The notes under the pieces are model-generated. The model ran no database searches and was not told the DNA's origin. It was given only the letters and a program-made list of their open reading frames with translations. A DNA stretch of 64,000 nucleotides from positions 22,085,168-22,149,167 of the forward strand of contig OZ316891.1 of the NCBI GenBank assembly GCA_973895155.1, in the 5' to 3' direction. The DNA comes from Marsupella aquatica (Eukaryota > Plantae > Marchantiophyta). This document shows positions 19,225 to 61,282 of the stretch, in pieces. The translations under genes and the position numbers were made by a program. Each line of letters opens with the position of its first letter. Positions within the stretch are counted from its first letter, which is position 1.

Positions 19225-19581
19225 TGTCATGCCGAGGGACAGTGCCTCTTATGCGCATCGGCATGTCCCTCGCATGCCCGCTAGGTATGTAGTTAGGGCT
19301 AGTGTACTACTTGAGTTAGCAACATATTCTTATAGCAAATTCCAGGCGTTCTTGAAACAAACGCGCTTGTTAGTGTGCCGCCAGGACTTTGTTTACTTAG
19401 GGCATGTCTTTCTTTGCCATTTCTCAGTTCTTCTTGAATCGCTGTTGACAGAGCTCAGACAGTGCTCGTCGGTTCCGTACACGGGATTCACACAGTGATT
19501 CGTTAGATGCTCCCGGCCGATCTTGGCATCTCGCCGATTTCGATTCGATTTCAGTACGCTTGTTTCTCTTACGCCTTTTAT
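19225..19581 (+). repeat. E1 repeat A1
   Basis: Matches 27826-28182 with about 10 mismatches counted by eye, all transitions. Confidence 0.95.
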
Positions 19582-19593
19582 TCAAGAAGAACT
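19582..19593 (+). promoter_or_regulatory. E1 putative self-priming primer-binding site
   Basis: TCAAGAAGAACT directly after A1 is the exact reverse complement of AGTTCTTCTTGA at 19426-19437 inside A1. Confidence 0.75.
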
Positions 19594-24049: not shown

Positions 24050-24250
24050 TGGCCTTACATTGCTTGAGCTTTTTGGTGGCCTGGTTTATCGACATTCTAC
24101 CGGTACATGGGATGAACCTAGTCCTGAGGAAAGAGAACGGGCTATGGGCTTCCAACCCGGTACTACAGGTCACACCAAAATCACCAGGCTGGCCAGGAAT
24201 GCTTTACTTGGCAGGGTAATAGATCTCAATGCTCTCACTTGGCTTCTGGT
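24050..24250 (+). pseudogene. E1 remnant C5-DNA-methyltransferase (motif I fused to motifs IX-X)
   Basis: TLLELFGG|LVYRHSTGTWDEPSPEERERAMGF...LLGRVIDLNALTW aligns with the start and end of the E2 DNMT domain. Confidence 0.8.
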
Positions 24251-27200: not shown

Positions 27201-27455
27201 TGATGTGGGAGATTTTGTGTACTTGCAGCGGCAAGCTAACGACACCCTAGACACCTCTACCAGTCGTACTATTCTCAAGGTTAAAGCTATTCGACCGTCT
27301 GGAGTGCTGACAGGTCAAAGCGGTCGAATAGCGTCTGGAGTGTTGACAATAAGCGCATAATTGTTGACAATGCCAAGAACTGCGCCCCTTGTCATCTGCC
27401 TAACCTGGATCCCACCATTGTGACTTCTACTTGGATTCCACCTGTGGACTACCCT

Positions 27456-27590
27456 TGCAAAGTGTGTTTGCGAATTGATGATGCTGACCAGATGCTGCTG
27501 TGTGACAATTGCAATGGAGGGTACCATCTTTTCTGCCTTTGGCCTGAACTTACTCAGGTGCCAAAAGGATTATGGTTTTGCCCTTCCTGT
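27456..27590 (+). other. E1 PHD finger at integrase C-terminus
   Basis: CKVC...MLLCDNCNGGYHLFCL.P....PKGLWFCPSC is a canonical C4HC3. Confidence 0.92.
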
Positions 27591-27640
27591 GCTCCACGTG
27601 CTACCTGACTTTTCTTCAGCCCTCCTTTTGGCTGTGGTCT

Positions 27641-27647
27641 GGGGGGG
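27641..27647 (+). promoter_or_regulatory. E1 putative polypurine tract
   Basis: G7 immediately precedes the first base of repeat B1. Confidence 0.6.
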
Positions 27648-28358
27648 ATACAGAGGTTTACACCTCCACTACGTACATACCACCTCATTTGCTTTTTCTT
27701 GGCACTTGTAAATGTGATGAGACTTTTTCTATGCATGTTGGTTGCTAGCAGCTTGCACATGTGCATTGCCAGTGCTTTGTATGTTTTTGATACACTATGG
27801 CTACGATACTATATGTCACGACAGCTGTCATGCCGAGGGACAGTGCCTCTTATGCGCATCGGCATGTCCCTCGCATGCCCGCTAGGTATGTAGTTAGGGC
27901 TAGTGTACTACTTGAGTTAGCGACATGTTCTTATAGCAAATTCCAGGCGTTCTTGAAGCAAACGCGCTTGTTAGTGTGCCGCCGGGACTTTGTTTACTTA
28001 GGGCATGTCTTTCTTTGCCATTTCTCAATTCTTCTTGAATCGCTGTTGACAGAGCTCAGACAGTGCTTGTTGGTTCCGTACACGGGATTCACACAGTGAT
28101 TCGTTAGATGCTCCCGGCCGATCTTGGCATCTCGCCGGTTTCGATTTGATTTCAGTATGCTTGTTTCTCTTACGCCTTTTATATACAGAGGTTTACACCT
28201 CCATTACGTACATACCACCTCATTTGCTTTTTCTTGGCACTTGTAAATGTGATGAGACTTTTTCTATGCATGTTGGTTGCTAGCAGCTTGCACATGTGCA
28301 TTGCCAGTGCTTTGTATGTTTTTGATACACTATGGCTACGATACTATATGTCATGACA
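27648..28358 (+). repeat. E1 3' repeat block B1(27648-27823)-GC-A2(27826-28182)-B2(28183-28358)
   Basis: B1 and B2 are near-identical 176-bp repeats (atacagagg...tgtca(c/t)gaca). The junction reads GACA-GC-TGTC. Confidence 0.95.
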
Positions 28359-28459: not shown

Positions 28460-28792
28460 TGTCACACCATTATGAGTGGTAGTATAGGATATCGGACTAT
28501 GTAGGTTTGAGGCTTTCATATGTGTGTTATCTAAGTATTTTAGGGTTAATGTATGTTTGTGAGGGATAGTTATATATCTCTAAGTTGTGTTGGCTCAAAG
28601 GTCTCATCTTTTGATGTTGAGCCTTTCGAGCACAAACTCTAGCGGCTATGGTGTGGCTGTCTAGGTTGTGTGTACGTAACGTGGATTCCTTGAGGCAGAA
28701 GGTGCGTTTGGCTTGACATAAGTGTGTGATCGCGTCGGGCAGGATTGTGTGTTGGATTAGCATCAATCATTGTTTGATTGCTCTTGAAGATT
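28460..28792 (+). repeat. E2 repeat A1 (contains TATATAT at 28571 and putative transcript start ~28606)
   Basis: Near-identical to 50747-51076. Confidence 0.95.
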
Positions 28793-28804
28793 ACATCAAA
28801 AGAT
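28793..28804 (+). promoter_or_regulatory. E2 putative self-priming primer-binding site
   Basis: ACATCAAAAGAT directly after A1 is the exact reverse complement of ATCTTTTGATGT at 28606-28617. Confidence 0.75.
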
Positions 28805-29454
28805 CGGCTTCAAACTCTATTGTGCAGACTGTGCAGACATAAGTTTGATTTCATTTTGGTTTTGTTGTTGACGATTCATGGTAGCTCGGATCGGGTGTTT
28901 TTATTGAACGGATCGTTGGTATCTCAATCTATTGCAAGTTGGTGCGGCGCTTGCGTAGTTCAAGTGAAGCTTCAAGTTGTTGTTGCTAAGTTGCGGTTTT
29001 GGAGTTGTGGTCTTCATTGATATGCATTGCTGCATTGTGGAGGACTGATTGTGTGATCGACAAGCGGATGTTGCTGTTGACAATTGTGTGTGAGACGGAC
29101 GATGGCGTCTTGTCCTATTTTGTGAAGGGAAAGTAGTCGGATGTGCGACTCTTTGAGGTTTTGATTGAGGTGGTTTGATTGGGAGCCCGATAGTTGATTA
29201 TGTTTACAATTTTTGTAGGATGCAGTTATGATTTGCATCAAGTTCCTTGTTGATGGATAGTGTGTTTCTATGAACGAAACAACGTTGAATGTTGGTGAAT
29301 TGTGTTGGCGGCGCGCGACAAGATAAGGCACCGCGGAGAGGCAAGGCGGCTGTGACTTAGGGCACAGAGGAAACAACAAATAGTGAATAGTGATTTTCCC
29401 GTCAATTGTGGCGTGTTTAGCACATGACTTGAGCGAAGAGAGTCTTGGTGGGGA

Positions 29455-29783
29455 GGCACCCACAACCCACGGCCTGTGGCCGATTCATCTTGGTTGTGTG
29501 GGTGGGCACCCACAGCCCACGGCCTGTGGCCGATTCATCTTGGTTGTGTGGGTTGGCACCCACAGCCCACGGCTTGTGGCCTCTTGCAGTTTGGTTGCGT
29601 GGGTAGTCACCCACAGCCCACGGCCTGTGGCCGATTCATCTTGGTTGTGTGGGTTGGCACCCACAGCCCATGGCTTGTGGCCTCTTGCAGTTTGGTTGCG
29701 TGGGTAGTCACCCACAGCCCACGGCCTGTGGCCGATTCATCTTGTTTGTGTGAGTAGGTACCCACAGCCCCTGGCTTGTGGCC
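29455..29783 (+). repeat. E2 5'-leader tandem array (~50-bp units, ~7 copies)
   Basis: Repeated cacccacagcccacggc(c/t)tgtggcc followed by two alternating spacer types. Confidence 0.92.
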
Positions 29784-29991
29784 TAGGGTTTTGGAATCAC
29801 AATCTTCCAATAATGCAAAGCTACTTGGTGAACAACGGACCGGTTTCACTTGAAGTGGAGTGCAGTTTTGGCCAACAACATTGCTAGCAGATACCAGTGG
29901 AGCTTCATATAGTGATTTTGACAAGGGCTCTGTAGCCAACTCTCCTCATCATTAGGTTGTTGCACCATTGTTGTGGGATATGGAGGAGACG

Positions 29992-31499
29992 TATGGGTCC
30001 ACTAAGGGCCCTAGGAGATACTCTGGTGCAGTTGGCACAATTGATTTGGATGATTTCATCCAAGATTTTGATACGTGGTGTGATATGCAAACAATGCGTA
30101 ATGCCACATTGTTTAGACCTTTCATGGCATGAAAAGGGTTGTTTCAGCATTTGGAGGGTCCACCCATGGATGATTACCATGAGTTTTGGAAGACCCATTT
30201 GGCTGATATTGAGATATGGAGACAACACTGGTCACCAAACTATGTGTCCATCACTTACGGCACAAGTGCGGTTTCTCAACCTGTTGCCCCAACTTTTGCT
30301 TCTTCTAGTAGCACTAGCCAGAGTGGCACTCCACCAACATCCACCGTTACTCCTACCGGTGCAATTGTGGGTGGGAGTGGAGTTGTGCCAACATTTAACC
30401 CTATGGTGAAGTTCTTTGATGTGTTGAAGTAGAACTACCAGGGTGTGAGAACTGATAAGTTGAAGGGTCTTCAAGATTTTCAGCGCAAGACTGGAGAGAG
30501 TCTACACAAAGCATACACTCGTATGCGAAGATATATTAATTACAGTCACCAAGGGAGTGACAGAGGCCCAAGTAGTTCAATTTTGGTATGCAATTTTGGA
30601 TAGAGAGTTGCGGCGTAGAGTAAGAGACGCCACTCTATTGAGGGATTCAGATTCCACATTGGCTGTTGTTTTTGCACTAGCCGAGCGCATTGAGCTCTAT
30701 ATGGTGAATGAGAAGGTGGTGACTTCCGGATTTGTCAAGGAAGGCTCACCAAAGGTTGCATCTACACCCACACTGCAACCTACTGTAAGGAAGAGCCAGA
30801 GGGAGAAGCCTACAACATGGGAATCTACTAGTTAGAGACCTGTGCCCTCCTATGCTGGACAACAGTCATGATGTTAGACTTGTGGTGGGGATCATGCATG
30901 AAGATATTGCCAAGATAATAGAGGGTCCGGAGGGGCATCTATGCCCGATCAACGATTATGTGATCATTGTGGAGTTTCTGGTCACACCAAGGATAGGTGT
31001 TTTATACTCCATCCTGAACTACAACGGGGAGGATCATGTACGTATGATCAGGGAAGAGGAGGTAGAGGTGGTGGTCGCGGCCGAGGTATGCCATATGCAA
31101 GGAGACAAGGAGGTGATGCTCCTGCCACTACCATAGATCCAAAGGATGAAAAGATTGCTCAATTGGAGCAACAACTAGCTGCCATGGCGAGTTCTCAGGT
31201 TAGACCTACTTCTGGTGATGGAGCCTCTACATCTTATGGAGCTGACGGAGACTTGGCCACCATGGGATTCATGTGTGACATTGCCCATGTTGATGCATTG
31301 GCAACTTTGACTCGAGGAGCAACCAAAGCCCTTGAGCCCCGAGGAGCAATGGTAGAGTTGGATCCTCAAAGGGGGGAAGCTTGTCGTCAAACGAAGCTTC
31401 CCCAATCATTTACATTGTTAGAGGCAGTTTAAACTAACTCTATAAACCCGGTTAAGACAAATCCAAGTGTGGATAAGTTGGTGGAATTGGATAATGTTG
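29992..31499 (+). pseudogene. E2 Gag region
   Basis: SGAVGTIDLDDFIQDFDTW aligns to E1 SGRPGTVSLCEFKSTF. Also has the zinc knuckle CDHCGVSGHTKDRC, an RGG tract and LPQSF (E1 MPQSF). Contains stops and frameshifts. Confidence 0.8.
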
Positions 31500-34400
31500 T
31501 GTCGCGTCCCTAACCCAGGCCTTAAATCCAGTTTAGTTCCATGGCGCGACTTTGACCACCAGTAAGGGTGAGGGTTCGGGCAAGGAGGTGTGTAGCGGCC
31601 TCGATTAGCCCCTAGTCGGGCTAATGTAATATACTTACGGGTATAACCCTTACGCAATTCGTACTAGTCATAGGTATATTTGTTTTCCACCGCTGGAATT
31701 TTCCCACAGTTAGTGACTCGGACTAACTCCCGGCTTGGGGCTTTCAAGCCATCGACGCAACAGAACCTTGTGACATGCAATGGGTGGCAATCCCTACCAT
31801 TAGTCTGCACCCGGTACGTCCCTTGAAATGACGCCTTTGCCCAGACAAAGCATACACACAACACCAGTTACTCGCAGAAACATTATAGGGAAAAGACTAC
31901 ATTTACTCAGCAAAGCATCAGTTTACATGGTTGACTCGACTTCTAAGGGGGTCAACAGGCCCAACGGCAGTCAATGCCCAGTCTCTACGAGGCCCCGCCT
32001 TGCACTTGCTCGACAAGCTCGACTCTGGCTCTCACTCCTTGGTGCGCTCTGACCCTGCTCAGGCCGGAACTCCCCGTGTCTCGCCTTTTCTTCTACTAAG
32101 ATAACTAAGCCTTCTCCCCCTCCCATAGCGGAAGGGGAAGCCTAAATACTACGGTTGCGGAAGGAAACCGGAGGATACTACCTTCTGGGATAATACCTAC
32201 TGACTAACTACCTATTGACTAACTACCTTCTGACTAGTTGACCGTCGTCAACAAGGGTGCTGACCGACATGGCAGCAGCAAAGCCTACTGACAACAAGCT
32301 AGTCCGTTGATGGACTCCATCCTACGTTGGCTGATCCTAACTGATTTGGTCCTAACTCTTCCTACTGCCGCTAATCGGCGCCTAATGACGGCTATTCTGT
32401 CGTTACGCCTGACCAGAAGATGCCGCTGACTCAACTGCCTTGCGTGGCGCCTGCTCCCACCCTTCGCTAAGCACCTCTTACGTGTGTGCTGTGGTCGGAC
32501 CAAGGTTTGTCCCCCTGTCGAGGCGAGACCTCGAGCCGTCTTGATCAGAGGTGGGCCCAGGTTTTCCCCTTTGGAGGACAAGTAGGGTAACGCGATCCTG
32601 CAAGGCCTTGTTGTCCCGTACCGCCGCCTCTGCCTCATTTGCGGCTTCATCGGCTTTTGTCTGGAGCCAAGCTACCTCCAGGTTGAGCTGGGTGATGGAG
32701 TTGCGATGGGCCTGGTCCTGCGCCCGCAATTTATCCCGTTCGGCGGAGAGACTAGCCACCTGCTGAGCCGCCTGCATGAATTGGTTGTTGAGGTCGATTA
32801 GGCTGGTAACCCGAGCCGAGGATTCTGAGCGCAATTGAAGCACAGTATCATTCAGCTTCTTGAGATCTTCTTGTGCCCCGCTCAACTCCTGGGTTAGTCC
32901 GTCTCGCTGTTCGATGGTGCAAACTAACTCCTCACGGCGGGTAGTGGCCTCCTCCTCGAGGTGTTCTACTAGCATTTGGAGGCGCCCGATCTCATTCCCT
33001 TTGGCCATGAGTTCTTCTTCCAAGCGGCTTACGATCCGGGGTTGGTGCTCTAACATGAAGAAGGCTGGTTGAAAGTACGTCGAGACTTGTTGTCCGATGT
33101 ACGTTGCCAGCTCCCCAGACATAGTCTGGCTATACTTCTGGACCAGGTCGTAGGCCATGGTCCCCGGGGCTACGTGGTAGTCCTCCATCCTCTCGGGTAC
33201 TGGTGGTTCCTCAGTCGGGGCAACGATCTCCTTCGTAGTCTGCGCTGGGGAGGGGAAGGTTTCTTTCGGTGGTGGAGGGATTGGGGGTGGTTGCACTGCG
33301 GGTAGCGGAGGCTCGACGGAAGGGGGCGGCGGAATCACAACAGGAGGAGGTGGCGGAGTATTAGTCGGGGCCTCCGCTGTTTAGGGTTTTCCCGAGGGAT
33401 GGTAGTCCGTGCACTCGGGGTTGCCTCCTCTGGGGTGGGGGTGACATTAGTCGGGGCTGAGGTGGCCATATTCTTTCCTTTGGCCTCCCGCCGTGCCTTG
33501 TACCAGGCGAGGATGATGGCGATATGACTTCCCAAGTAAGTCTTCCCCCCAATAGCCATACCACTTTGAGCCCGCTTCAGCTCCCCCGAGAATCTACGAT
33601 AAAAGAACTGGGCCCAGTTCCGCCATTTGTACTGTTCCACCTGCACGATCGTGCAGAGGGAGATCTCGGATTGTGGCTCAATCATGTGTAGGGTAGTCCG
33701 TATGAAGTTAAGCCGCTCCATGCAGATTAAGTTGGTGCACGACCCCTGCTTGTATCCGTTGTCCGTCTTACCCTCGGGTTTGAAGTGCCGCGGTGTATAC
33801 TCCTTATCCTGAATTTGGAGTTTGACCGGCACCGGCCCAGTTGGCAGGCAGAAGATCTGTGCTAGCCGATGCTCCGTGAGTGTTAAGGTCTACCCTGAAA
33901 CCTTGGTGGTCAATGCGTCAGAGTCGAAATTGGACATGAACTCGCAAATCTGCTTTGGCCCGGCGGCGCACGGTCTCCATAGCAAGTGAGCAAACTGCTC
34001 CAACTGATGCTCCTTGAGATAGTCCGCGTGTTTGAGTTTCTTGATCGAGATCCAGACTACTTTGGGGACGTAGATCACCTGTAATAAGTTGGACTTTGGG
34101 TTATCCGGGGGCCGCCGGGTCTGGTTGGCCGGGGGGTTTGTCGGGGAAGGTGTAGGCGCGGTGTTGGTTTGCGTTGTCGATTCGGGGACCGGCGTCGTCC
34201 TTGCCCGCTTATGAGAACGCTGCTCGAGTTGCGGACTAACTTGCTCGGAACCCAAAAAACACACGGCGTTGATTACTGGACGGACTTGAGGCCGGTTCGG
34301 AGGTACGCCGGTGGTCATCAACTAAGGTGCTGGGGGTGGTGCCGGGGTAGCCATATCCCAGTTGAAGGCGTTGGAGCTTTCCCCGAGGAATGTAAGATTA

Positions 34401-35334
34401 CGTGCAGCTTCTCGTTGTCTGCTGATGTCTTCTTGGCGCTTTTCGGCTGCGATCTGCTGGTCTAGGTACCCGGAATCTTGTCGAACTCCGCTTGAGTAAG
34501 CCGCTGGTTGCCCTTCAGCCTACAGAACTTTGCAGGGACTTCAAGAATTGCCTTTGCTACCGATCTGAGCCCTTCCTCACTGAGATATAGCTCGGTGATG
34601 TAGTCTCACAGCTCGTTGTAATTGTAGTCCCTGGTGATGGCCGTCTTCTCGCAATTAACCAGTGCTACCTTGGCCACCAGCTTCGCGTATCTTTGTTCGT
34701 AAGCGGCTTTCTCGGGGCAGGAGTACCAATAAGTCTTGGAGAACTTAGCACCTACCTCGCCAAACAAGGTCCAAAATCCCAAGGATGTAAGGGTCATACT
34801 AACCTTTGTAGTCCGGTTCGTCGAGTCCGCGTTCCCACCCGGCTGGTCCTCTTGCTTGTGGAGGCCTTACTCGTCCTGACTAAATCTCGCCACATTCCGC
34901 ACTCATCCCTCGATAATCTCCTTGTAAAGGTCAGCTTGATTCGAGCAAAAAGGCAAGTGAATGGCAGCGTCTGCAAATTCCAAAAGGTAGAAATGAGCAA
35001 ATGACCCGCAGCACCGTTGGCTCCTCTCTTATGGAGGTGCCAGGGTGAGCCCAGGCGTGAGAAGGCCAGGCCATTTTGGTCGTTGATAATGAGCTAAAGT
35101 TGGCACCTCGGTCCAAGCGTGATTCTCCAAACGGATTTTTACTCCGCCGCCGCCACCGTACCTCGGTCGCGAGTAATACTCCTCCTCCTAAATTTGTAAT
35201 CATTTGGTCCACTTAACCTACTCCTATTCTATTCATAATGGCAACGGACGGCTATACGTGCTATTCTACTCTACGACTACGGTCCTAATGACCGTATAAG
35301 ACCTAATCTACGTCCTAGGTTTTGTTAAGTGACA
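31500..35334. mobile_element. 3.8-kb TG...CA insert (solo-LTR-like) with antisense ORFs, nested in E2
   Basis: Starts TGTCGC and ends GTGACA. It interrupts E2 between Gag and protease. Flanks TGTTG/CGTTA may be a degenerate TSD. Confidence 0.7.
32478..34321 (-). pseudogene. Plant-transposon-associated protein (Transposase_32/PMD-like globular domain, Pro-rich linker, coiled coil), interrupted
   Basis: ORFs 33890-34321 and 33335-33832 are in frame across one TAG, then frameshift into 32478-33338 (heptad-rich). Motifs ICEFMSNF..TKVSG.TLTLTEHRLAQIFCLP and NWAQFFY..TYLGSHI. The family assignment is by eye only. Confidence 0.55.
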
Positions 35335-36439
35335 CGTTACCCGTGTCATATGTTGCAACAAGGATGGCAAGTACCTTGCTGGGGGCGGCCACAAATATTG
35401 TGCGCACCTCGTTATTTTCAGCAACATATATGGCATTGGGAGTTAGTCCAGCTGAAGTGTTCAGATTGGCAGCCACATTATGTGAAGGAACTCCAGTTGT
35501 TCCTTCTCGTGCATAGACAGTGCCTAATTCTGAAGTTGTGGAGTTGACTCCACCTATTGCTAGTGGTGAAACATGGCAAGCAGCAGCGGCGAGGTTGATG
35601 GAGTTACCAGCACGCCCTGCCTTTGAGAGAACTAGGTTTAAACCTAGTGTGGTATCATTGGATAATCAAAGTGGTATCTTCCGATTAGTTGGGCCTTTTG
35701 GAGCGATATACCAGCCAGAACGAGTGTTATTGGATACTGGTGCTCAGCCCTTGATGTTGGGTAAGACTGCGATACAAGGATTGGGATGCGTCCAAATGAT
35801 TTGGAGGAGTGTCCCTTTCCCATTCAGACTTCATTGGGAGGACCTACACCCAAACAACATATCACCAAACGAGCACTTGAACTTAGGATTCAAGAGGATC
35901 ATCCAAAGGATAACTCACGGATCCAGGCTCAAGCTATTTTGACTAAGGCTGAGTCATATGATGTGTTAGTGGGATGTACGATACTTTATCCTATGGGATT
36001 TGTTCCTAATTTTTGGGATGAGTCGGTGTCGTATCGACCCGATTGGCAATCTGGAGATGCTTGGTTGAGCCAATTGCAAGTGGGATTTAGTGGACCTGTG
36101 GGAGGTCCTAAATCTGCACCATTGTCTTTGGCAGCATTCAGTAGTTTGATTATTGGATTTGATGAGTTGATTAAAGGTAATGCACATGCAGCAGATGTTT
36201 CGGCAATGGAGGAGCCACGTGAGGAACACATGACGGGTGTATTACTTGTTGATACTATTGTGGCACCAGTACGGGGTACTGGAGAGGCCTTGCAACAAAA
36301 TGTGACCCAATTGATACATGATGCCTGACGTCATGCTTTTACACCGGAGTCAGGAGCACAACAGTCTTTTGCAGATGGACCGGTAACCCTTTCACCATTG
36401 GATACCACTCCTATTGTGTGGTAGTATCCAGAGGAGGGT

Positions 36440-37440
36440 ATTTGTTTGTTAGATTTATTTTGTGGGATTGGCACTGGATTGGCTGCTATTCTTCAAGCAG
36501 GAATTTATGTGCGTCGTTACTTGTACGTGGAAAACAATGAGATAACACGGAGGATCTCACTATGTCATGTAGCGATGTTGGTGGAACGTTATCCACATTT
36601 GTTGCCAGTGGATGCCATTCGTGGTTATCAGCATGCACTACCTGCTGATATTTCATTATTGGGGCGGATCATTTGGATTGTGTTGGCCCCATTGATTTGG
36701 TGATTGCGGGTTGGCCATGTCAGGGTCAATCTCGGGCTAGAATTGGACATGGATTTCAAGATCCAAGATCTACATTATTTTGGGAGATGTTACGTGTGTT
36801 GCGCCATCTCCAGATGCATCAGACACATTCTCCTACATACATTTTGGAGAATGTCCCATTATTGGGTGATGATCGTCATCGAATTGTTGCTAGTGTTCAT
36901 CAGGTTCGATCTTGGATTGGGCCTGTTGTGTTATTGGATGCTGCACGTGTGGGTTCTCGTGCACATTGCCCACGATTATGGCGGACTAACTTGTTACCAT
37001 GTGAGGTCTTAAAGTGAGCATTTGATGGTGTACCTCGCTCAACAATCTTAGTGGTGGATAGTATTTTGGATCCAGGGCGTCGTGCACAAAGTGTTACCCA
37101 ATCTGATCAACCACCATTGGCAGTGGTGAATGTTGTTGGGCGTCCACGTTGTGCATTACCCACTTTTGTGAGCCATTCTGCTTCATACGCATTTTGAGCA
37201 AGTGGCCCTGGACTTGTGTGGGATACAGCTCTACAAAAACTAGTAGAGCCTACCGCTAATGAGAGAGAGCGGCTATGGGATTTTTGAAAAAAAAATTAAA
37301 AAATTAAAAATAAAAATAAAAATGAGAGAGAGCGGGCTATGGGATTTTTGACCAGCACCACGGCAGTGGCCTCGGTGTCAAAGCATTCACGTTGTTAGGT
37401 CCTTGGTCAAACCATGGATTTGAATTGCTTGACTTGGATA
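36440..37440 (+). pseudogene. C5-cytosine DNA methyltransferase domain inside the E2 pol
   Basis: Motif I LDLFCGIG, II YVE, III DI, IV DLVIAGWPCQG.S, V DPRSTLF, VI YILENV, VIII SRAH.PRLW.TN, IX ERERAMGF and X VLGQTMD appear in canonical order. Confidence 0.93.
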
Positions 37441-37659
37441 ATCAGCTTGGGATTAGCTGAACAATTGCGAATGCGCAGTTCTAATGTTACAGATCGTCCA
37501 TTGGTGAGCTTGCGGCCTACCGAGACAGTAGCGGCCACAGTTGGGGGCGAGCAGACGATTGATAGACCTATGGCAGGATTGGCCAAGGCAAAACATTTTG
37601 TTGAGAAAAAGGAGGTTGCTCAAACCATTGATAAATAGCAACGAGCGACTGTCTCTTCC

Positions 37660-37850
37660 ATCCACAGCCCACGGCTTGTGGCCTCTCGAACTCCAAAGGA
37701 AAACATCACAGCTTCGATGGAGAGTCACAACCCACGGCTTGTGGCCTCTTCAACTCCAAATGAAGATGTCACAACTTTGAAGGAGAGTCACAGCCCACGG
37801 CTTGTGACCTCTTCAACTGCAAAGGAAGATGTCACAACTTTGATGGAGAG
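37660..37850 (+). repeat. ~63-bp tandem repeats in the DNMT-RT linker
   Basis: Three copies of caca(g/a)cccacggcttgtg(g/a)cctct...aactcc/tgcaaa...gtcacaacttt. Confidence 0.85.
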
Positions 37851-39038
37851 TTGGGAACCACAAATTGGTCCTAAGTTGACCGGGAGGGAGAGATGTTGCA
37901 TGCATCAATTCTTGAAGAGTTATTGAAATTGTTTTGCATTTAGTATGAAGGATTTGGGGACATTGAAGGGTCTTGGTATTCAGATTGAATTGGCTAGTGA
38001 TGCACCAATCTTTTGACGACCGTATCGGTATAGTGACATGGAGAGGGCTTTGATCCATAGTAGAACTCAGGATTTGTTGGAGGCTGGTTTGGTGGAAATC
38101 TCATACGGGGAGTATGCATTTGCCACAATGATGCCAACCAAGAAGGGTTAGGATGTGCATGGAAATTACACAGATAGACAAATGTGTGGTGATTATCGAC
38201 CTATTAATCGTTAGACAAAATCTGATCGATATGCCATGCCCACACCGGAGGAGATCTTTGATGCTATGGGGCATGCAAAGATATTTAGTTCGTTGGACCT
38301 CAAGGCGGGGTACCATCAGTTGCCAATTAGGCATTCTGATAGATCCAAGACAACATTTTGGGGAATTGATTCTTATGGCAAAGATTGTTTGTATCAGTGG
38401 TTGTTCTTACCATTTGGGTTGAAGAATGCACCAGCTGAATTCCAAAGAGTTATGGATCGAATTCTTGCAGGTTTGGATTTTGTGAGATGTCAGTTACATT
38501 GATGATATCTTGGTCTATTCTTTGACTGTGGAAGAATATCAAAGACACACTTGCAGATTGTGTTGGAGAGATTGAGAGAACATGGATTGAAACTCTATCC
38601 TGGCAAATGTAAGTTATTCCAAGACAAAATTGAGTATTTGGGCCACACTATCTACCCAGGAGGATTGGGTGTGCAAGAGACTAAGGTGGAGGCCATTACA
38701 CAGATTCCTTGTCCTACTGATGTGAGTAGAGCTCGTGCATTCTTGGGATTGGCGAGCTATTATAGACGGTATGTTAAAGGATTTAGCCAACTTGCCAAAC
38801 CTTTAACTATACTCACTAAGTTGGACCAGGAGTGGATTTGGGGTGACGACCAAGAGCATGCTTTCCAAGAATTGAAGGAAAGATTGGCGTCAACACCTAT
38901 TTTGAGAAGACCCATTTCGGAACGACCATTTCAGCTACACACTGATTGGAGTGGAGTAGGACTTGGAGCAGTGCTGACTCAGAAGGATGATGAGGGGAAT
39001 GAGTTTGTTGTGGCATAAATTGTGAGCTGCTCAATTAG

Positions 39039-39395
39039 GGGTATTTACAAACGACAGAAAACAGCAAACAGTAACAGCAAACAGAAACTGGTAACAGGAA
39101 AATGAGTGGTAATTTTTTTTGAATTTTTTTTGAATTTTTTTTTTGGAGAAAAATTATTTTTTTTTTCAAATTTTCAAATTTTTTTTGCTAGCGCCCAAAG
39201 CTAGCCAAAAAATGTTGTAATTTAATTTTTTTGGGGAAAATATGACTTTTTAGAAAATATTTTGACATGGTTGTTTTTCTTGGTAATAGTAACTTTTTGC
39301 TGGTAACAGTAACTTTTTGTTGGTAACAGGAAAATTTTGCTGGTACCAATAAACCTGTTTCCTGTTTACTGATTTCTGTCACGCATGCCATACCC
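39039..39395. mobile_element. Mutator-like MITE
   Basis: GGGTAT...ATACCC termini with imperfect long TIRs. 9-bp TSD CTCAATTAG at 39030-39038 and 39396-39404. Confidence 0.85.
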
Positions 39396-42208
39396 CTCAA
39401 TTAGTGGGTTAAATTAGTTTTAGGTTAGAGTTTTTCTTTTTTGTTTTAGTAAGCATATTATGCCTGTAAATGAATGGGAAGTAGAAGTGAAATTGAAGTA
39501 AACTCTCTTCAGTAAAACAGAGTAAGAAAGTTTCATTAGTTTAAACCACGGTTAACTTAACAATGGATTAGTGGATTAGATAGGTAATCAGATCCTTAGA
39601 GTTTGTAATTTAGGCTGAGATTTTTTCTGAAGGTTCTAGGCAGGCCCTGGAGAACCCTTGTAAAAGTGCAAGTCATTTCGACCATTCAATTAGAAGCTAT
39701 TTACAGTGGAACAAAACTTAAAATAGCCAACTTGCAGGACGTAGGGGAAATAGCCAGAGAGCAACAAATGTATTTTGAAGGCTGGCCATGGTGTTACTAT
39801 ACCTAACACTATCCCTTAGAATTACTAAACCTAGTTTTGGACTTATAGATACTTTTTGGGAGTGGTCCGAATTCTGTAAAAGTAGCTATGAAGTATGACG
39901 GATTGCAGACTTTGAACAATTATAGAAAAGCCAAGTTTAGTTATATATCAATTCTAAGAATTGTTTTAGAAAGCTCTAGGACTAGGAAATCCAGGAGTAT
40001 GTTCATAATAGTTTTTTTTCCTTATGAGTGAATTTTGAACTATAGGCAAAGATGGCTAATGTTAAATGCCATAAGTAGCACTTAAAGGGAGACTTAAAGA
40101 GAGGAATGTTCTTTGTGCATACAAAGGGGTAATTCAGCTGCATAGAGAAACATGGTGGACTCATTTACATCTGTAAAGGGCAGGGTTACAATGTTAAAAA
40201 GCTAGCTAAGGCCAGGTGTCGAGCCCAAAATTCAATAGAGCAAAATCAAAGTAAAATTGAAGGGAGAATGGAACTCAACGCTGCGGCTGAATGGAGAGCC
40301 AATACTCCACCAAATCAAGTAAGAAGAACTGGGCTCGAATGCTGGGCTCAAGGAGAATCAGAAGACCTGAACTAGAAGAGGAAATCCTGGAGCACGAATT
40401 AAAGGAGGAGATTGAAGGGAAAGCAAAGGTTGGAAGGGAAATTAATAGAGAAGATTGAAATTTCTGAATCAGAGAGAATATTTTACAGAAAGGAGAAGTC
40501 ATTGACTGCTAACAAGGGGGCTCTTCAGGCAAAATCAAGGGCGAAATCAACTTGCACCTTCTATAGGAACTTAGAGGTGGCACCATGGAGCAGCTAGAAG
40601 ACCATTTCCTCAGCTAGGGCGATTGACAAGAAATCTGAGCTGTGGCCCTTAACTTCAGGAATTGAATGCAGGATCAAGTCCATAGATATATTCTGAAATT
40701 AGAATGACTGCTCTTTGGACTTCAGGAATTGAATGCAGGATCAAGTCCATAGGTATATTTCTGAAATTAGAATGGCTGCTCTTTGGACTCACAAATTGAA
40801 TGCTACCAAGGTCAACCGACAGTCGAGAGAAGAACACATGGAAGGGAAATATTTTCGTGAGAATGAAGGGCTGGTCTGAACGGAAGCACTGGCCAGACTT
40901 CCTTCAAATAACCCACGATCCCTTCAAAAAAGTTCAGTTCTCTAAGTCCTAGCTTAGTTCTCTCCTTGCTCCAAACTGAATCAGGCAGTCGACTCCGCCA
41001 TAGATTGGAAGCATTCATTCTCCTATTTCCATGAGTTCTTTCTCTCCGTTCACCCATGCACTTACTATCAAGACCAGGGCTTATATTTCACAGGAGTACT
41101 GGGCCTTTACGTTTGTAGTCTCACGGGGTTACTATTTGGCTTTATACACCTGAGTTTACACAGGCAGGGTCAGGCAAACCAAGTTTACACAAGTAACTAA
41201 GCCTTGAGATAAGGCTGACCCTAGTTTAAAGTGATGATATTGATGGGTTCTGCTGAAACCTGAATAACTCGCTCAGTTTAGACTCAATTGGAGTACTTTT
41301 AAATGCATTGGAAAGCTATTGACGGTGGCTAGAGGTTGGCATGAGCTAGGAGGATTGAGAGTTCATTAAGATTCTCCTGGAAATCAGGTTCTATAACAGT
41401 TTGATTTTTGCTGACTACTTGAGAGGTTTTGATCGTGGTTACACTCTAAAAGGAGGTCAAGTGGGACTACAATCAAAGTGCATGGCTGATCCCAGAGTTC
41501 CTGATCCAAGAGGGCTGCCTGATCAGCATTTTCCTCCCCTGGTCCACAAGGCTAAGTTCACCTTGTGGAGTAAGCATGGGAGAACACATGCTGACCCCAA
41601 CATTTGGCTGACCCAATACCTAGCTTGCTCAAAGGTGGACAGAGGGGCAGAAGTTCAAATTTGAGGGCTTTCACCAAGGTGTACCTCAAGTATTTCAGAG
41701 AGGACAACCAAATTACCAAGCCACTAACCAGTACGGTAAGGAAGTACCATGCTTGGGTCATTCGCAAGGCCCTAATCGGATGGGTGAGGCCTGGAGAATG
41801 GCTCTTTTATGTCAAGGGGACCTAGGCTGGTTCTGGAGTCCAGGAATAAGGAGGTTAAGGAGTGGAGTCCTTAAAGCCAACATGGAGGGTACCTAAGGAC
41901 CTGAGTTACATGGAGACTTTGGAGGAACTTGGAGGGCCATTGGAAGTTGATCCCTCTACTGTTTTTAGAGCTATTTGGTAGATAGGGATGACTGTATTTT
42001 GGAGGCTGATTTAGTCCCTGATTTGGAAGGATAGGACAGCCAAGTCAGGAGGTGAGGTGGACCTGAATGAAGGGCTGAAATCAAGGAGTTGATTTAGGCT
42101 TTCAAAAGGCCACCAACTAGCTCATTAGTTAGGTAAGACACACAAGTGAGTTAGTGAGTTAGTTAGGAGGATAAGTAAGGATCTTTGACCCCCTTGAAAG
42201 GTGGGCTA

Positions 42209-43043
42209 CCGTCTTCCCCCGAACACAACGCCGGGGTGCTATATTCGAATAGTGGGTCAAGGGGTGCTATATTTGAATAGTGCGCCCTAGGCGTTGTGTT
42301 CAAATTTTTTGACATGGTTTTGGATTTTTTTCACTAGTGGCGCTGTGTTCAAAAATGTCGTTGTGTTCAAAAATAGCATTGTGTTTGAGTTTGACGTTGT
42401 GTTTGAGTATAGGCCTTTGTGTACAAGGGTAGGAGATTAATGTATTGTGTAAGCACTAACTGAAGTCTTAAATAAAGTGTTTGCGAATGTGTAGGTAATT
42501 CAAACACTGAAATTACACAAGGGAAGCTAAGAGAACAGACCTTGCAAATCACAAGTACCATAAATTTATGACAATCAACAATATTCTAAAAATTGTTCCA
42601 AAACATCACTATTGTCAACTTAGTGCATGTCATACCATAATACAATTGTTTGGTTGCCTCAAACAATAAAAAATGCCTAACAGCACAATAAAATAACATA
42701 ACCAAGGAGACTTGGACAAGTTGTCTACTATGTGTTCTGAGCTTTTGCTTGATAAATTGTTGCTACATGCTGCAAAACCTATGGACTGCCTACTTCATTT
42801 GTTCAGTTTCAAATGTACACTACCTACCAAAATATGATCTCACATACAGCCAATGCCAACACTGTGCTGCGCCAACTTTGAAAGTATGTGCCAACTTCAA
42901 ACACAACGCCAAACTCAAACACAGTGCCCGGGCGTTGTGTTAATCCAATGCTGTGTTTGAATAAAAACCACTTTTTATTTTTAGGGCCCAAAAAAAGTCA
43001 TATTCGAACACAACGCCCGGGCGTTGTGTTCGGGGGAAGACAA
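42209..43043. mobile_element. Tc1/mariner(pogo)-like MITE
   Basis: TIR (cc)gtcttcccccgaacacaacgcc / ggcgttgtgttcgggggaagac(aa), flanked by TA on both sides, with internal subterminal repeats. Confidence 0.85.
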
Positions 43044-43727
43044 TAGTCTTTTTTTAGTGGTGAGTCACTTGCTGGCCTTTGGGGTGGTTTTGGACTTTGT
43101 GATGAGTTGGAGCCAAGCAAGGAGTACTTAAGTTGGTGTGAATTACTTTGTGTGGGTCCAAGTATAGAGAATCAAGTAGTAGCACTAAGAGACCTTAGGG
43201 GAACTAAGGTAGATGTTCTAGGGGTACTAGAACTCAAGTGTGTGCCTTGAGGCTTGAAAGGACCATAGTGTTAAGTAGTAGGAGTTGAAGAAGCTAAAGT
43301 ATAGCAAGTAGGTAGTGACAACCTACCCATGTACTTCCTTTGAAATTCTTATGAAATTTCAGCGCGTTTTTGGGAAAGAAATTGTTGATGTGCACTCATC
43401 TGAAATTTTGAGGCCCTTGTGGTCTAGCATGTTGCTCATATATGATCTTTGTGAGTCCAGAAGTCTTCTCTTTGGGTAGGGGAGACCTAGATTAGTTGTC
43501 TTGCCGGGTAGGGTCACATTTCCAATGGTGGAAACCAAAGAATACCCATTTCTGGTGACGAAAACCAAATACATCTGCATAGTCTCAAGGAGAAGCAAAG
43601 GCTTAATGGAAATAGAGGTAGTTTTTTCTTATGGAGCGTCCCTCTCGTAGTTCATGGTGATAAAGAGCTATCAAGTGCAAGCTTTTAGTACAATAAGGCT
43701 TATTAGCTCAGAAGCAAGGGTCTGACA

Positions 43728-45921
43728 CATATGCCAGTAGATCAAACAATTCAGCAGAGGCTAAGTATAGCTCGTATGAGGGAGAGTGTTTGGCAGTTGT
43801 GTGGGCTGTGGCACATTTCCGTTGCTATTTGTTTGGTAATCCGTTCACCTTGATCACTGATCACCAGCCCCTCAAGTGGTTAAGGGAGTCTAACAAGCTT
43901 ACAGGAAAGCTTGCACGATGGGCATTGTTGTTACAAGAGTATGATTTCCTCGGGGGTTTCACTTCCACAAAAATGGCATATCACGTGCAACAAAGGATAG
44001 GGTCATTTTATTGGTTCTAAGGGAAGACTTAAGAATTTTTTGTAGAAGAACAATAGGGTCTTTTAAATTTAATTTTGAGACTTATAAGAACATTAGGGTC
44101 TTTTTAATTCAATTTTTAGAATATTCCAAGAATATTCCAACTTTATAGGGGTTAAAAAATAAAAATAAATTCTTACATTTTAGGGGGTCCGAGGCCTAAA
44201 AACGTCGCAGGCGATGGGGAGGTCCCCATATAGTGAGACCCCCGAGATGATTTCCAGGTTGTACATAGGCCTGGTAAAGTGAACTTGGATGCGGATGGGT
44301 TGAGCCGTAATCCATGTACCAGTCAAGAGGATGAGACTGGAGCTCGATGGCATGATGAGTTGGATAAGGAGAGTGTGCCAGGATGGCATGCATCTGCCTT
44401 TCTTTGTTGGGTTCCAACATATAGTGGATCTATGGACTCTACTTCATTGGATGGGGTAGACGTTGAGTCTTCAGATATGGATGTTGATGAGGTAGTTTTT
44501 GGGCAGCAAGATATTCAGATCCATTGTTGGCAATTGTGATGCTAAAGAGCAAGATAGGGTTCTACAATGAGCCAAGAGGTTTTGATGGGAAGGAAACCAT
44601 CTTTTGAGGATACTACGTGATGGCAAGGTGTTGGTTGTACCAAAACCGTCACAACGAGTACGTTTGGTGTGACATGCGCACAAGGAGTTGGGTCACTTTG
44701 GTGTGAAATGCACATATAGCTTGTTGTAGACACAGTATTGGTGGTGTGGTATGCGCACTGATGTCCAACAATTGATTGCTAAGTGTGTGGTATGTGATCG
44801 AGTGCGAGCATCGTTCAATGCTCCCACTCCCCAATTGCATCTGTTATCCATAATGGGTTTGGGATATTGATGGAGTTTGGACTTTGCTGGTCCATTACCT
44901 CTTACCCAACGTCACAATCGATATGTTTTGGTTATGGTGGAGCACTTTTCCAAGTGGATTGAACTAGTGGCATTGCCAGATAAAGCTAGTGGAGGAGTGG
45001 CTATCACATTTTTGGATCAAGTACTCAGTCATTTTGGAGCACCAGCTGAGGTGTTGACTAATCAGGGCATGGAATTCCGTGGAGAGTTTGAGGGTTTGTG
45101 TGAGCAAGCTCTTATTGATCATCGTACTATTTCTTGTGATCATCCTGAGGCAGATGGATTGGCAGAGAGAGTTGTACAAACCGTGAAGAGAGGAATCTTG
45201 CGTAAGTATGGCTTGCAGGTTGGTCATTTGGGAGATTGAGATCTCCAGCTACCTTGGTTAGCTATGGGCTACCGTTTCAGTCGACAAGCATCACTTGCAT
45301 CCTTCTCACCTTATTTCATGCTCTATGGTATAGAGAGCCAGATTTGCCAACGACTATTCGTTGTGATGTGGCAATTGTTGTGGATTTGGATGATCCCGAT
45401 GTTTGGGTCAAGATGTGTTCCAAAAGGGCACGAGTTTTTGAGAGAGTCATGCCCATGGCCTTTGACAACCTTGCCATTGCCCAACATTGTGATACTTTGA
45501 GGTATGCCACTATTTACAGAGGAGGTTATCGTGCGAGGATTTGACAGTTTCATCCTGGTGATTTGTTTATTTGCAGCAAACAACACCCACAACACTTGAT
45601 GTGACCGCAGGTCGGACAATCTTACGTGTGCGTGAAGTGTTGTCTTCTGGTGTCCTAATGTTGGAAGGACGTGATGGTATGGTTTGGAAGGATCATGTAC
45701 GTAATTGTGCACCATGTCATCTTTCAAACATTGATGGTACAGTAGATCCAAGCTTGGCTCAAGTTCATGCCGGCTTGAAGTGTATGTTGTGTGGATCTGC
45801 TCAAGGAGCAGCCACTATGTTGATTTGTGATAAGTGTTCTAGAGGATGGCACATGTCGTGTTTGACACCACCATTGGAGGTGATTCCTAGTGGATCATGG
45901 TTGTATCCTCAATGTCGGTGA
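43728..45921 (+). pseudogene. E2 RNaseH end-integrase-PHD region
   Basis: Motifs YEGECLAVVWAV, TDHQPLKW, HKELGHFG..CVVC, DFAGP, EHFSKWIE, PEADGLAERVV and PHD CMLC...LICDKCSRGWHMSCL.PP...PSGSWLYPQC (45781-45915). Confidence 0.92.
43949..44246. mobile_element. hAT-like MITE
   Basis: TIR ctcgggggtttcact / agtgagacccccgag with 8-bp TSD ATGATTTC. Removing it restores QEYDF-QVVHRPG. Confidence 0.88.
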
Positions 45922-46094: not shown

Positions 46095-46231
46095 ATTGTG
46101 GGTTTTGGACATGTGTGGATAGGAGTTCCACTTACACTCCATTCTCTTATGTTTGTGATGTTGATTGTGACTATGCTTAGATATGTGTGACAAGCGATGT
46201 ATATTGTGTAGCGATGTTTATGCGCACGACA
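46095..46231 (+). repeat. E2 repeat B1
   Basis: Matches 51078-51214. It is preceded by AGGGGGCCG and followed by GC. Confidence 0.95.
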
Positions 46232-46234
46232 GCT

Positions 46235-49200
46235 TGTCACCTGCTTATCAAACGATTTACACGACAAGTACGTATTTACTCCTACTAAAATTGTTTGTTA
46301 TCGTATGACGGGAACGTGGAGAGACGCTATTAGGATTCTATTGCATGTAGGATGAGTATGTTTATTTCCGCTCCCGGAAATGTAATTTTTGATCAAGTCT
46401 ACCGACTAGTTGCTCTGCTTTTGATTAAGTCCCATGGACTAGGCCACACACACACTCCTACTGGCCGTTGGTGGAGTGCTGTCACCACCCCTCCTACTCA
46501 TAGGGTCGACCAAACCGTGCAAGGATTCCTTAGACACTTCTTGGGGAAAGAACACAATCTTGAACCAGGAAAGATAATGCCACACCAAAACTTGAGGAAT
46601 CAAACCAAATCCATATCTTTTGGCAAAACGTCGTAACACATTGCAAGGACAACCCGGCCTCCTACCGTCTGCCCAACTACTGCCTCACTGGGCAAGTGCT
46701 ACACCTCTACCTCACTACTCTGGCTTGATTCCCCTTTTCTCGCTATGAGCTAACTTCCGGAAACAAACACTAGACTGAGTCCCCCCCAACTACTTCGGGG
46801 CTCTCCCCTAAATACCAAAAAAACACACCAAAGCACCCCTCATGGGGCCACAACGATGGCGGCTTACCCTAGCGGCGCCGCTAAACCCTTCACTAAGAAA
46901 CCCCTAAACTAAAATCATGTGGCACACACATGCTTCTAAAACCCTAACCCTAAACTAACAATGGGGCCGGCGGTGCCTTCGACGACGCCCCAACATTACT
47001 CCGTGAACCGTGAAATTGCAAAGAACCCAACAATGGCCGAAACCAGGTGACCTTCCACTTGAACTTCTGAGTTCACCCCTGGATAGCCCCACTCTTCCTG
47101 ATCATGAATCACTCAACCGCTCTTGAAACGGACATCGGACGACCAAGTTATGGCCGTTTCAGTATCCCGTAAACCCAACTTTGTCGGGCCCTAACTTGCT
47201 CATCCTGGCTCCGTTTGAGGAGCGCTGCCTCTTGTTGGGATCAGCTCCACGAGCTCTTTCCAACAAGCCCATGAGTGACCCCTCACAAAAAGTGGGAAAG
47301 TCAAGGGGCCGTACAACCACGTCCGTACGACCACTCTAATTCTCCTCCTCTTCACTCACGGTGCCCTGGTTTGAGCCCCGTGAGTGGGCCTCCTCATCAC
47401 TCTCCACTGGAGTGAGTGCCACTTCACCCCTCCTTTTCTTCACCGGGGTACTCCTAGTGCTAGTGCTCCCCTGCTTCCTCAAATTGGCCAAGGCTTGCCA
47501 CGCTTTGATGTACCCCTCACCAATGGTGTCCTTCCATAAGGCCGCCTCTTCACCGGACCGCAAAGTCTCCAACGGTAAAACCTGCCCGGTGGCCATGGGA
47601 GTCCTAGGGGTGACAGATCGGGGTGGCATCCCCGTGTTGACCTGAGCCTCCCGTAACGATTTACGTACCTCCCTAAGCTTCTTCTCTAAGTTCTTGCTCT
47701 TCTCTTGACTCTTCTTGGCTGTATCCAACAGGGGTCCATACTTCCCATTGACTTCCTTCACCACCATCTCAATGGCCCTGGAGATCAAATCTGGGGAAAG
47801 TGTGGAACTAGGTGTGCAGGGGCTCTTCCGTTTCCCCAGACTCAAGGCCTCACTCCTCTTAGCCCTTGTCTCAAAGATCACCATTTGACTCCGTAGTGCT
47901 CCCACCTGGGCTCTTAACTCCACCACCTCTCCAGAATTCTGCTTCTCTTTGGCCAATGCTTGTTTCAATACTCCAACCTCTTCCGCTTCCTTGGCCTTGG
48001 TGGACAAGGCTCCCTTCAAGTTGGAGATCTCTACGTGAGCTGCTTGGAGAAGCTTAACCTTCTCATGAATGGCCTCCTCCCTCGCCTCCTCCTTGGCCTT
48101 GATCACCTCCTTCATAGATAGGGCACTCTGCTCCAAAGTCTCTACTCTGGCGGTGGCCTGCTTGAGAGAATCTCTCAATGCGTGGACTAGCTTGAGTCCC
48201 TCATGGACTCCCTGCCGGAAATCCCGTAACTCCGCCAGGTAGACATCAGGAATGTCGTAGACCAGGGGCTCCTCCGGATCTCCCACAAGTGATTCAAGCC
48301 ACTCCAATGTGGAGTCCTCATCCTGGTTTTCTTCCCCTCTATTATCATCCCCAACCGCCGATGATGATCCCTCTGTTAGTTTCCCCAAGATGGTAGTGGC
48401 AATACTCCTGATTTCCGTGGTAAGGGATGATCCAGAGTCTTCCTATCCTGGGAAAATAATCCACCCTTCTGCTCTGGCCAGCAAAAATGACCCCATCAAA
48501 TGTACAACCCCACCTGGTTTCACACTCCCGGGATTGGCGTCCAATAGCTTCTTCAACCCGTAGTACCACCATCCGTACACATGGGCTGGATAGTTCTTGA
48601 TGTCCATAGCTACCACGAAATGCTCTCCATTCACCACCCCGGATTGCACGTTACCAAGGATCCATTGATGAACCTTGGCCATAAATCCCTTGTGCTCAGC
48701 ATCTCTGACGGCGGAAAGAGGAATGGAAGTAGTGGAGGTGGGATTAATCACCCAACCGGCCACCATTGTCAACGTGAGCTCTCCCCTTATGTTCTGAGGT
48801 GTGAATGAGAATTGCTGGTTCTCCAGAAACAAAAGCTTAGCTAACTCCACATGGGGCACTACCCGTTGGAGACATTCAAAGTAGATTCCTTCCTTGCGTA
48901 ACTCCATCCCGGCCTCAATGTTCCAATTCTTCCCCGAAGGGATTGTAATCTCCACCTTCATGAACTCCGTGAGCCCGGTGGCCAGAAAAATATTCCTACA
49001 ATCCTCCATCACCTTGGCGGAGGTTTTGGGATAAATTTGACGGAAAACCTTCCTACTCACTGGTGCAGAACTTGCCGCCAGTCCAGTACTCATTGTAGCT
49101 TCTCTCTCTTCTCTCTCTCTTGCAATCCCCTGGGGAATCACTCGTCGGATTCTTAGAACCACGTGCAAACAAATGAAGGCTATTTAAAATCCTACCCAAT

Positions 49201-50746: not shown

Positions 50747-51214
50747 TGTCACACCATTATGAGTGGTAGTATAGGATATCAGACTATGTAGGTTTGAGGC
50801 TTTCATATGTGTGTTATCTAAGTGTTTTAGGGTTAATGTATGTTTGTGAGGGATAGTTATATATCTCTTTGTGTTGGCTCAAAGGTCTCATCTTTTGATG
50901 TTGAGCCTTTTGAGCACAAATTCTAGCGGCTATGGTGTGGCTGTCTAGGTTGTGTGTACGTAACGTGGATTCCTTGAGGCGCAAGGTGCGTTTGGTTTGA
51001 CATAAGTGTGTGATCGCGTCGGGCAGGATTGTGTGTTGGATTAGCATCAATCGTTGTTCGATTGCTCTTGAAGATTTATTGTGGGTTTTGGACATGTGTG
51101 GATAGGAGTTCCACTTACACTCCATTCTCTTATGTTTGTGATGTTGATTGTGACTATGCTTAGATATGTGTGACAAGCGATGTATGTTGTGTAGCGATGT
51201 TTATGCGCACGACA
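50747..51214 (+). repeat. E2 3' repeat block A2-B2
   Basis: A2 equals A1 (28460-28792) and B2 equals B1 (46095-46231). Confidence 0.95.
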
Positions 51215-61210: not shown

Positions 61211-61282
61211 AAATTGGCCGTGTGTGCTTTAGTAGAGAGTTTCAATCAGAGCATCATGCAAAAGTCCCAATGAGTGATTTGA

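Follow-up and report, generated by a model that had tools for sequence, protein, structure and literature searches.

What would a DNA methyltransferase do inside a gypsy retrotransposon of a liverwort, and is it an accident of one copy or an established part of the element? The question is raised by a window of 64,000 nucleotides of the Marsupella aquatica genome (contig OZ316891.1, positions 22,085,168 to 22,149,167), by which we mean the whole stretch of DNA that was analysed and to which all coordinates refer. An earlier note, made from the letters alone, had read there a cytosine-C5 methyltransferase, broken by stops and frameshifts, between the protease and the reverse transcriptase (RT) of a gypsy polyprotein; it had supposed that the lineage extends to land plants and may methylate its own cDNA. 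Here we describe the element that carries the domain, called E2, together with a distant second family represented by element E1 and the relatives of both. Features lie on the plus strand unless stated otherwise.

A DNMT3-like domain in a dead copy

The methyltransferase domain (DNMT) occupies positions 36440-37440, and all its C5 methyltransferase motifs follow each other in unpermuted order between 36452 and 37425, between protease and RT as the earlier note had it. They comprise motif I DLFCGIG (36452-36472), motif II YLYVE (36518-36532), motif IV GWPCQ (within 36694-36726), motif VI ENV (within 36841-36855), the motif VIII region (36958-36993), ERAMGF (within 37324-37347) and LGQTMDLN (37402-37425). 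The frame 36664-37287 matches PF00145, the profile that the note had proposed as a check, with E=1.8e-11 and 44.5 bits against a curated cut-off of 22, while the piece with motif I has no Pfam match when searched alone.

Against solved structures, a profile of 19 relatives ranks DNMT3A/B/C at the top (E about 1e-16), ahead of HhaI (1e-6) and of the methyltransferase 4onj (2e-5), which we take to be DRM2; the printed alignments of this profile span motifs IV to VIII and the C-terminal motifs. In DRM enzymes the motifs are permuted, whereas the order in E2 is not. The predicted structure of a relative, P0006 (pLDDT 75.8), likewise finds its best match in DNMT3A (E=4.5e-17). Judged by its closest solved relatives in sequence and in predicted fold, the E2 domain is DNMT3-like, a likeness that rests on profile, fold and motif order, the DNMT tree being composed of retrotransposon-type rows only.

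The copy itself is dead. A stop lies directly ahead of motif I at 36422, the frame shifts near 36661, three more stops (37015, 37195 and about 37396) fall inside the domain, and motif IX is interrupted by A-rich inserted sequence flanked by a 29-30 bp duplication (37258-37350), in keeping with the broken domain of the earlier note. The first arginine of motif VIII has become a cysteine in this copy; the catalytic cysteine and the motif VI glutamate are intact. In four public runs, 1356-5048 contigs per run matched positions 35300-39100, covering 30/30 bins, and the DNMT-bearing family is abundant in the organisms of those runs. Where E2 has the frameshift and two of its internal stops, other copies in these runs have a different sequence, and the breaks in the DNMT are particular to the E2 copy.

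Anatomy of element E2

The whole DNMT-bearing copy extends from 28460 to 51214, with TG...CA ends, a 4-bp target duplication (CGAT) and four nested inserts, and its parts follow in the order A1, gag, protease, DNMT, RT, RNase H, integrase, PHD, B1, A2, B2. Repeat A1 (28460-28792), the 5' part of a permuted LTR, bears a TATA-like box at 28570 and, at 28606-28617, 12 nt complementary to the primer-binding position, the predicted 5' end of the RNA and self-primer; the primer-binding site itself (28793-28804) adjoins A1. The broken gag (29980-31495, zinc knuckle 30959-30985) is followed by a frameshifted aspartic protease region (35517-36100, active-site stretch 35724-35750), the pieces of which have no Pfam match on their own, the protease of the relative P0003 giving a weak match to PF13650. 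Downstream of the DNMT domain, where PF00078 (RT) and PF17919 (RNase H) are matched, come the broken RT with the first part of RNase H (37860-39015), then the remaining RNase H, the integrase and a C-terminal PHD finger (43730-45920, also broken; PHD 45781-45900). Repeat B1 (46095-46231) stands immediately 3' of a G-rich polypurine tract, and A2 (50747-51076) and B2 (51078-51214) close the element.

The order gag-protease-RT-RNase H-integrase, a DDE integrase, TG..CA ends and the target duplication make E2 a Ty3/gypsy element. Two complete direct LTRs at the element ends are absent from both E1 and E2, where the repeats are permuted as A-body-B-A-B. The DIRS/PAT class of tyrosine-recombinase elements was considered and ruled out by the rve integrase of E1, the integrase matches of E2 and the 4-bp duplications.

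Among the inserts, a 3.8-kb TG..CA sequence without internal repeats (about 31503-35333) lies between gag and protease, with coiled-coil-like frames on the minus strand. Two further inserts break the RNase H, at about 39019-43729 and at 43950-44246, the latter with a 9-bp duplication on both flanks. A 4.5-kb TG..CA insert (46235-50742) with the 5-bp duplication CAGCT has landed precisely within the palindromic B|A junction, a placement due to chance or to site preference; its two minus-strand frames (246 and 368 aa) have no Pfam matches. Short tandem repeats of about 50/101 bp occupy 29440-29792 in the E2 leader, and a 63-bp tandem repeat (37663-37851) lies just 3' of the conserved stop discussed below.

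Both elements sit between the two copies of a block of at least 10 kb (19-9946), which recurs 53.4 kb downstream at 53426-63385 with 98.6% identity. Within the block lie a 485-bp tandem repeat and, on the minus strand, an open frame of HAT/TPR-repeat type (7871-8971). The closest clusters of an F-box/kelch gene at 10738-12204 belong to Streptophyta, and the relatives of the DNMT element point to a bryophyte as the probable host. No tRNA genes were found in the 64-kb window.

Element E1, a second family

Element E1 (19225-28358), a member of a distant second family, shares the layout of E2, with an integrase, a PHD finger and the target duplication ACAT. Its repeats are A1 (19225-19581), B1 (27648-27823), a GC dinucleotide, A2 (27826-28182) and B2 (28183-28358). 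The DNMT remnant that had been claimed for E1 is there (24063-24230): the start of motif I is fused to motifs IX-X through an in-frame deletion of about 246 codons. Alone it has no Pfam match, and the full domain is kept in the E1 relatives L067, L072 and L078. A stop at 22280, after the zinc knuckle of E1, was tried as a readthrough site and rejected as a decay stop, since relatives read CGA there. The repeat pairs differ in 12/533 columns in E1 and in 10/465 columns in E2, mostly by transitions, which indicates that both insertions are fairly young.

Relatives and selection

Species labels are attached to 19 of the 54 matches to the window's DNMT domain (15 Marchantia, 2 Calypogeia, 2 Sphagnum), and a wider search added named relatives in Riccia and in two more Sphagnum species. 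The lineage is thus present in land plants, as the earlier note had supposed. In a quick DNMT tree, E2 falls with the named bryophyte relatives in a clade of 17 rows (support 100), adjoining P0003, to which it is 82% identical; the roots of this tree and of the RT-RNase H tree serve for drawing only. Among viral contigs, 33 pattern matches contained no relative. Two proteins labelled as coming from bacterial MAGs were set aside as probably mis-binned eukaryotic DNA: P0063 groups within the element rows of the tree, and the domains of P0322 make up a complete gypsy set.

Metagenome loci were taken as the best 80 of 248, drawn mostly from few related data sets and some of them assembled twice. 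In 78/80, gag, protease or RT stands beside the DNMT domain, always in the order of E2. Between E2 and the 80 loci, the median pS of the DNMT is 0.69 and the median pN 0.27, with a dN/dS of 0.18 (72/80 unsaturated pairs); protease (0.21), gag (0.27), RNase H (0.18) and integrase (0.08) give values that are, like that of the DNMT, rough because dS is near saturation. Judged by a ratio of about 0.18, the domain is under purifying selection between lineages. Among close copies (pS 0.1-0.2) the DNMT reaches 0.65, compared with 0.46-0.52 for the core enzymes RT, RNase H and integrase. The neighbouring element domains, the dN/dS and the copies in the four public runs together dispose of the one-off capture that had been named as a possible refutation.

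Residues were counted in 188 related proteins of at least 900 aa, where conservation is inflated because matches and loci were picked by their likeness to the DNMT domain. The catalytic cysteine is intact in 183/187 aligned relatives, the motif VI glutamate in 187/187, and the motif VIII arginines in 183/186 and 185/186. Two motif positions vary: the proline before the catalytic cysteine (PC motif) is glutamate in 72/187, the E1-like family included, and the motif I phenylalanine is cysteine in 26/177. Depletion of CG and CHG leaves no footprint of self-methylation, as it does not set E2 (CG observed/expected ratio 0.38-0.62) apart from E1 (0.24) or from the nested inserts (0.30-0.81).

A second position in chlorophyte algae

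A representative search returned 269 clusters of relatives at E up to 1e-30. Within their 93 proteins of at least 900 aa, the DNMT lies between RNase H and integrase in 63 and between protease and RT in 29, one being unresolved. Named members of the RNase H-integrase group are Monoraphidium neglectum and Haematococcus lacustris, and sequence comparison thus points to a sister group in chlorophyte algae in which the domain is placed between RNase H and integrase. The two position groups are largely separate in the DNMT tree and in the RT-RNase H tree, where the protease-RT group has a support of 98, and a C-terminal PHD finger is common to both. The two positions would fit a single capture followed by relocation; independent captures are a possible alternative, the trees being built without host DNMT3 and DNMT-free references.

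Among the chlorophyte-type proteins, P0301 and P0347 carry a DNMT3-like domain between RNase H and integrase, P0301 with a Tudor-like domain after the PHD finger. P0390 (1770 aa) combines a distant DNMT-like N-terminal domain with RNase H families and has no gypsy RT match; it possibly belongs to another element class.

A conserved stop between DNMT and RT

At the boundary between DNMT and RT, E2 has an in-frame stop with a CAR context (TAG CAA CGA, 37636-37644), a predicted readthrough site. The first stop upstream of RT in the RT frame, counted with exact duplicates dropped and E2 included, is followed by CAR in 40/51 rows, against 30/711 for decay stops. Of the other 11 rows, 4 belong to the E1-like family, from which the stop is absent, 3 meet a nearer stop and 4 show other contexts. 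The distance from the stop to the RT match is 22 codons in Sphagnum-like copies and 29 in L053 and L055. In 34 of the 40 CAR rows the next codons are CAA CCC. Of the 93 long database proteins, 18 comprise only gag, protease and DNMT and end there.

Readthrough in TMV requires UAG CAR YYA according to the accessible text of PMC2754532, and this full context occurs in only 4/40 rows. Sphagnum-like copies have an ATG after the stop, which makes reinitiation possible, and P0378 is a single-frame relative outside this arrangement. As the conserved stop splits the DNMT from the RT, the Gag-protease frame has the domain as its last part, and RT would likely be reached by readthrough. The claim that the domain lies within pol accordingly stands for its position between protease and RT and fails for its frame, which the stop at 37636 assigns to Gag-protease. 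With the exception of the E1-like family and single-frame relatives, the DNMT is likely made together with Gag and the RT by readthrough.

Element ends and putative self-priming

Since B lies 3' of the polypurine tract and A runs up to the primer position, B+A corresponds to the LTR. At the B|A junction stands a palindrome, TGACA-GC-TGTCA, or what decay has left of it, and the outer ends of the element are halves of this palindrome without the GC. The A|B junction is more variable: it may be flush, have one base in addition, or contain a filler of 17 nt or 15 nt from the primer site. The last form is retained in a shortened copy (L044 13289-13570, L045 5538-5819) and is expected if the cDNA end that copies the primer was joined to B.

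B was found upstream in 0/19 distinct 5' ends, whereas of 20 distinct 3' ends 7 run on as B-A and 13 stop at B (Fisher p=0.008). The 3' ends with B only may be one-LTR products, B1-B2 recombinants or the result of assembly collapse. The 4-bp duplication is exact in 7/9 loci with both outer ends, L003, where B2 is unseen, being excluded. On the simplest reading, cleavage by the integrase falls in the left palindrome, and the loose ends of A and B are linked to each other, either in a circle before integration or by repair after it; both fit the end structure.

Repeat A contains a stretch complementary to the primer site, and the sequences differ between families. The complement measures 15 nt in E1 and 12 nt in E2; of 2000 random windows, 2 and 0, respectively, gave one as long. 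It extends up to 17 nt in the loci and is at least 10 nt long in 12/19 5' ends, of which two have it at other offsets of the primer window. A TATA-like box lies about 25-35 nt upstream of the self-complementary site in E2 and in most loci shown, though not in E1. The self-priming pair was absent from the minimum-energy RNA folds of the two elements (z -1.3 and -1.2). Going by the complementary sites, E1 and E2 may be self-primed, with a predicted RNA start inside A1.

Comparison with known elements

The closest described system is KnitGypsy-Dnmt3 of the alga Klebsormidium nitens, a gypsy element with a DNMT3-like domain (de Mendoza et al. 2018, PMC5890265). In the parts of that paper available, it resembles E2 in the intronless, unpermuted DNMT3-like domain inside the gypsy coding region, in DIRS-like split repeats combined with a gypsy domain content, and in purifying selection on the DNMT. 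By these features E2 is of the same kind, no Klebsormidium-labelled sequence being among the matches. The E2 relatives differ in belonging to land plants and in their high copy number; the paper places the algal domain in the Pol ORF, whereas the conserved stop assigns that of the E2 family to the Gag-protease frame. A PHD finger, self-priming, a target duplication and a palindromic junction are not mentioned for KnitGypsy-Dnmt3 in the same available text. Its domain produced no methylation in yeast, a result that the authors call inconclusive, while retrotransposon DNMT3 domains of Symbiodinium carried out de novo CG methylation there (PMC5890265). SymbioDIRS-Dnmt3 shares with E2 a DNMT3-like domain in a retrotransposon polyprotein, but is described as an independent capture by a tyrosine-recombinase element of dinoflagellates, whereas E2 has a DDE integrase (PMC5890265).

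On other aspects, E1 and E2 recall further groups known from the accessible portions of the literature. Tf1/Sushi and the plant Tcn1 elements prime without a tRNA, from a site that is complementary to their LTR (Neumann et al. 2019, PMC6317226); the primer sites of E1 and E2 show such complementarity, and the two may likewise do without a tRNA. The Tcn1 group consists of chromoviruses and has ordinary LTRs, whereas E1 and E2 have a PHD finger after the integrase and permuted repeats; the survey required TG..CA at both LTRs, on which E1 and E2 fail (PMC6317226). Gypsy elements of Chlamydomonas such as Gypsy-7a_cRei have a PHD finger in the polyprotein as E2 does, but the available text lists no methyltransferase domain for Gypsy-7a_cRei (PMC9940879). 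The EpiLTRs of Cymbomonas and Euglena are, as E2, LTR elements with a cytosine methyltransferase; theirs is sister to DNMT4 and accompanied by an adenine methylase and a chromodomain, and the authors regard them as distinct from streptophyte Gypsy-DNMT3 (bioRxiv 10.64898/2026.05.21.726589).

In their accessible text, that preprint and PMC12344493 cite streptophyte retrotransposon DNMT3 from PMC5890265 only; their term 'streptophytes' could include bryophytes. Marchantia is absent from the supplement text available for PMC5890265, and retrotransposon DNMT3 in land plants is not described in the available portions of PMC11982613, PMC10952607, PMC9985172, PMC9940879, PMC6317226 and bioRxiv 10.1101/2021.11.30.470311. 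Our literature search, with incomplete coverage of subscription papers and Repbase, found no report from land plants or chlorophytes.

What the domain may do

The reading towards which we lean, with some reserve, is that intact copies would make the DNMT at Gag levels, package it in the particle and methylate the new cDNA before integration. It draws on the position of the domain, its dose and the activity of the Symbiodinium DIRS domains in yeast. Transcription would start inside A1, and the first 12-17 nt of the RNA would prime reverse transcription, as in Tf1. Most ribosomes would stop after the DNMT and a few would read on into RT-RNase H-integrase-PHD. Inside the particle the protease would release the DNMT, whose nearest substrate there would be double-stranded cDNA. 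This cDNA would have the structure B-A-body-B-A; the integrase would cut the palindromic B|A junction of its left repeat, the leftover A and B ends would be joined, and the new copy would arrive pre-methylated. Tempered expression, camouflage or protection of the cDNA are candidate benefits.

Several observations speak against methylation of the cDNA in the particle: the failure of the Klebsormidium domain in yeast (accessible text of PMC5890265), the lack of most of the DNMT in the young E1 (12/533), the looser constraint on the DNMT than on the core enzymes among close copies, and the lack of a compositional footprint. Against the readthrough step stand the partial TMV context, possible reinitiation and the missing stop of the E1-like family. 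The DNMT looks helpful yet dispensable in cis. That it was a mere passenger, captured once without benefit, or a one-off insertion in E2, we hold to be highly improbable and largely refuted. Its loss from E1 and a dN/dS near 0.6-0.9 among close copies would suit a passenger; such high ratios, however, hit all domains and fit the decay of dead copies, and the domain occupies one position in the elements of liverworts and of mosses alike, has a dN/dS of about 0.2 between lineages and yields DNMT groupings that broadly agree with those of the RT.

An active domain might also work after integration or in trans, on the integrated copy, its neighbours or host DNA, and so temper the element or alter host chromatin, particle cDNA not being its main target. 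Production at Gag levels would presumably leave much enzyme outside the particles, the C-terminal PHD finger suggests chromatin targeting, and the available text of PMC5890265 discusses such host effects; still, the domain itself lacks a targeting module and lies within the frame that builds the particle, and we consider this course unlikely. The domain could instead persist as a structural module or as one that binds nucleic acids, or act on RNA, its DNA methylation lost, as the inactivity of the Klebsormidium domain in yeast (PMC5890265, accessible text) and the replaced proline (72/187) and phenylalanine (26/177) would allow. This appears quite unlikely when the cysteine, the glutamate and both arginines are near invariant at 35-45% identity to the query and the fold matches DNA enzymes.

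Meaning for bryophyte genomes

Retrotransposon DNMT3 had been described earlier from one charophyte alga and from dinoflagellates. We offer, as a tentative and on present grounds doubtful picture, an old gypsy lineage of green plants (chlorophytes, bryophytes, Marchantia) with an active DNMT3 that moved within the polyprotein, the land-plant branch of which would rely on a leaky stop to bring the enzyme into particles at capsid stoichiometry, and would methylate its cDNA. If this is true, the methyl mark may decide which of two identical palindromic junctions the integrase cuts, and a choice directed by the mark would explain why A-B-A-body-B copies are never seen.

The chlorophyte group means that the domain was kept in two positions, and the arrangement of the stop codon provides a concrete prediction on enzyme dose. 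For genome annotation, counts of 'DNMT genes' in bryophytes and algae may include many element copies, and standard LTR finders that demand TG..CA on both LTRs would miss the family. With the copies of Marchantia polymorpha, the question of what a retrotransposon-borne DNMT3 does moves into a land plant that is amenable to genetics and whose methylomes have been mapped.
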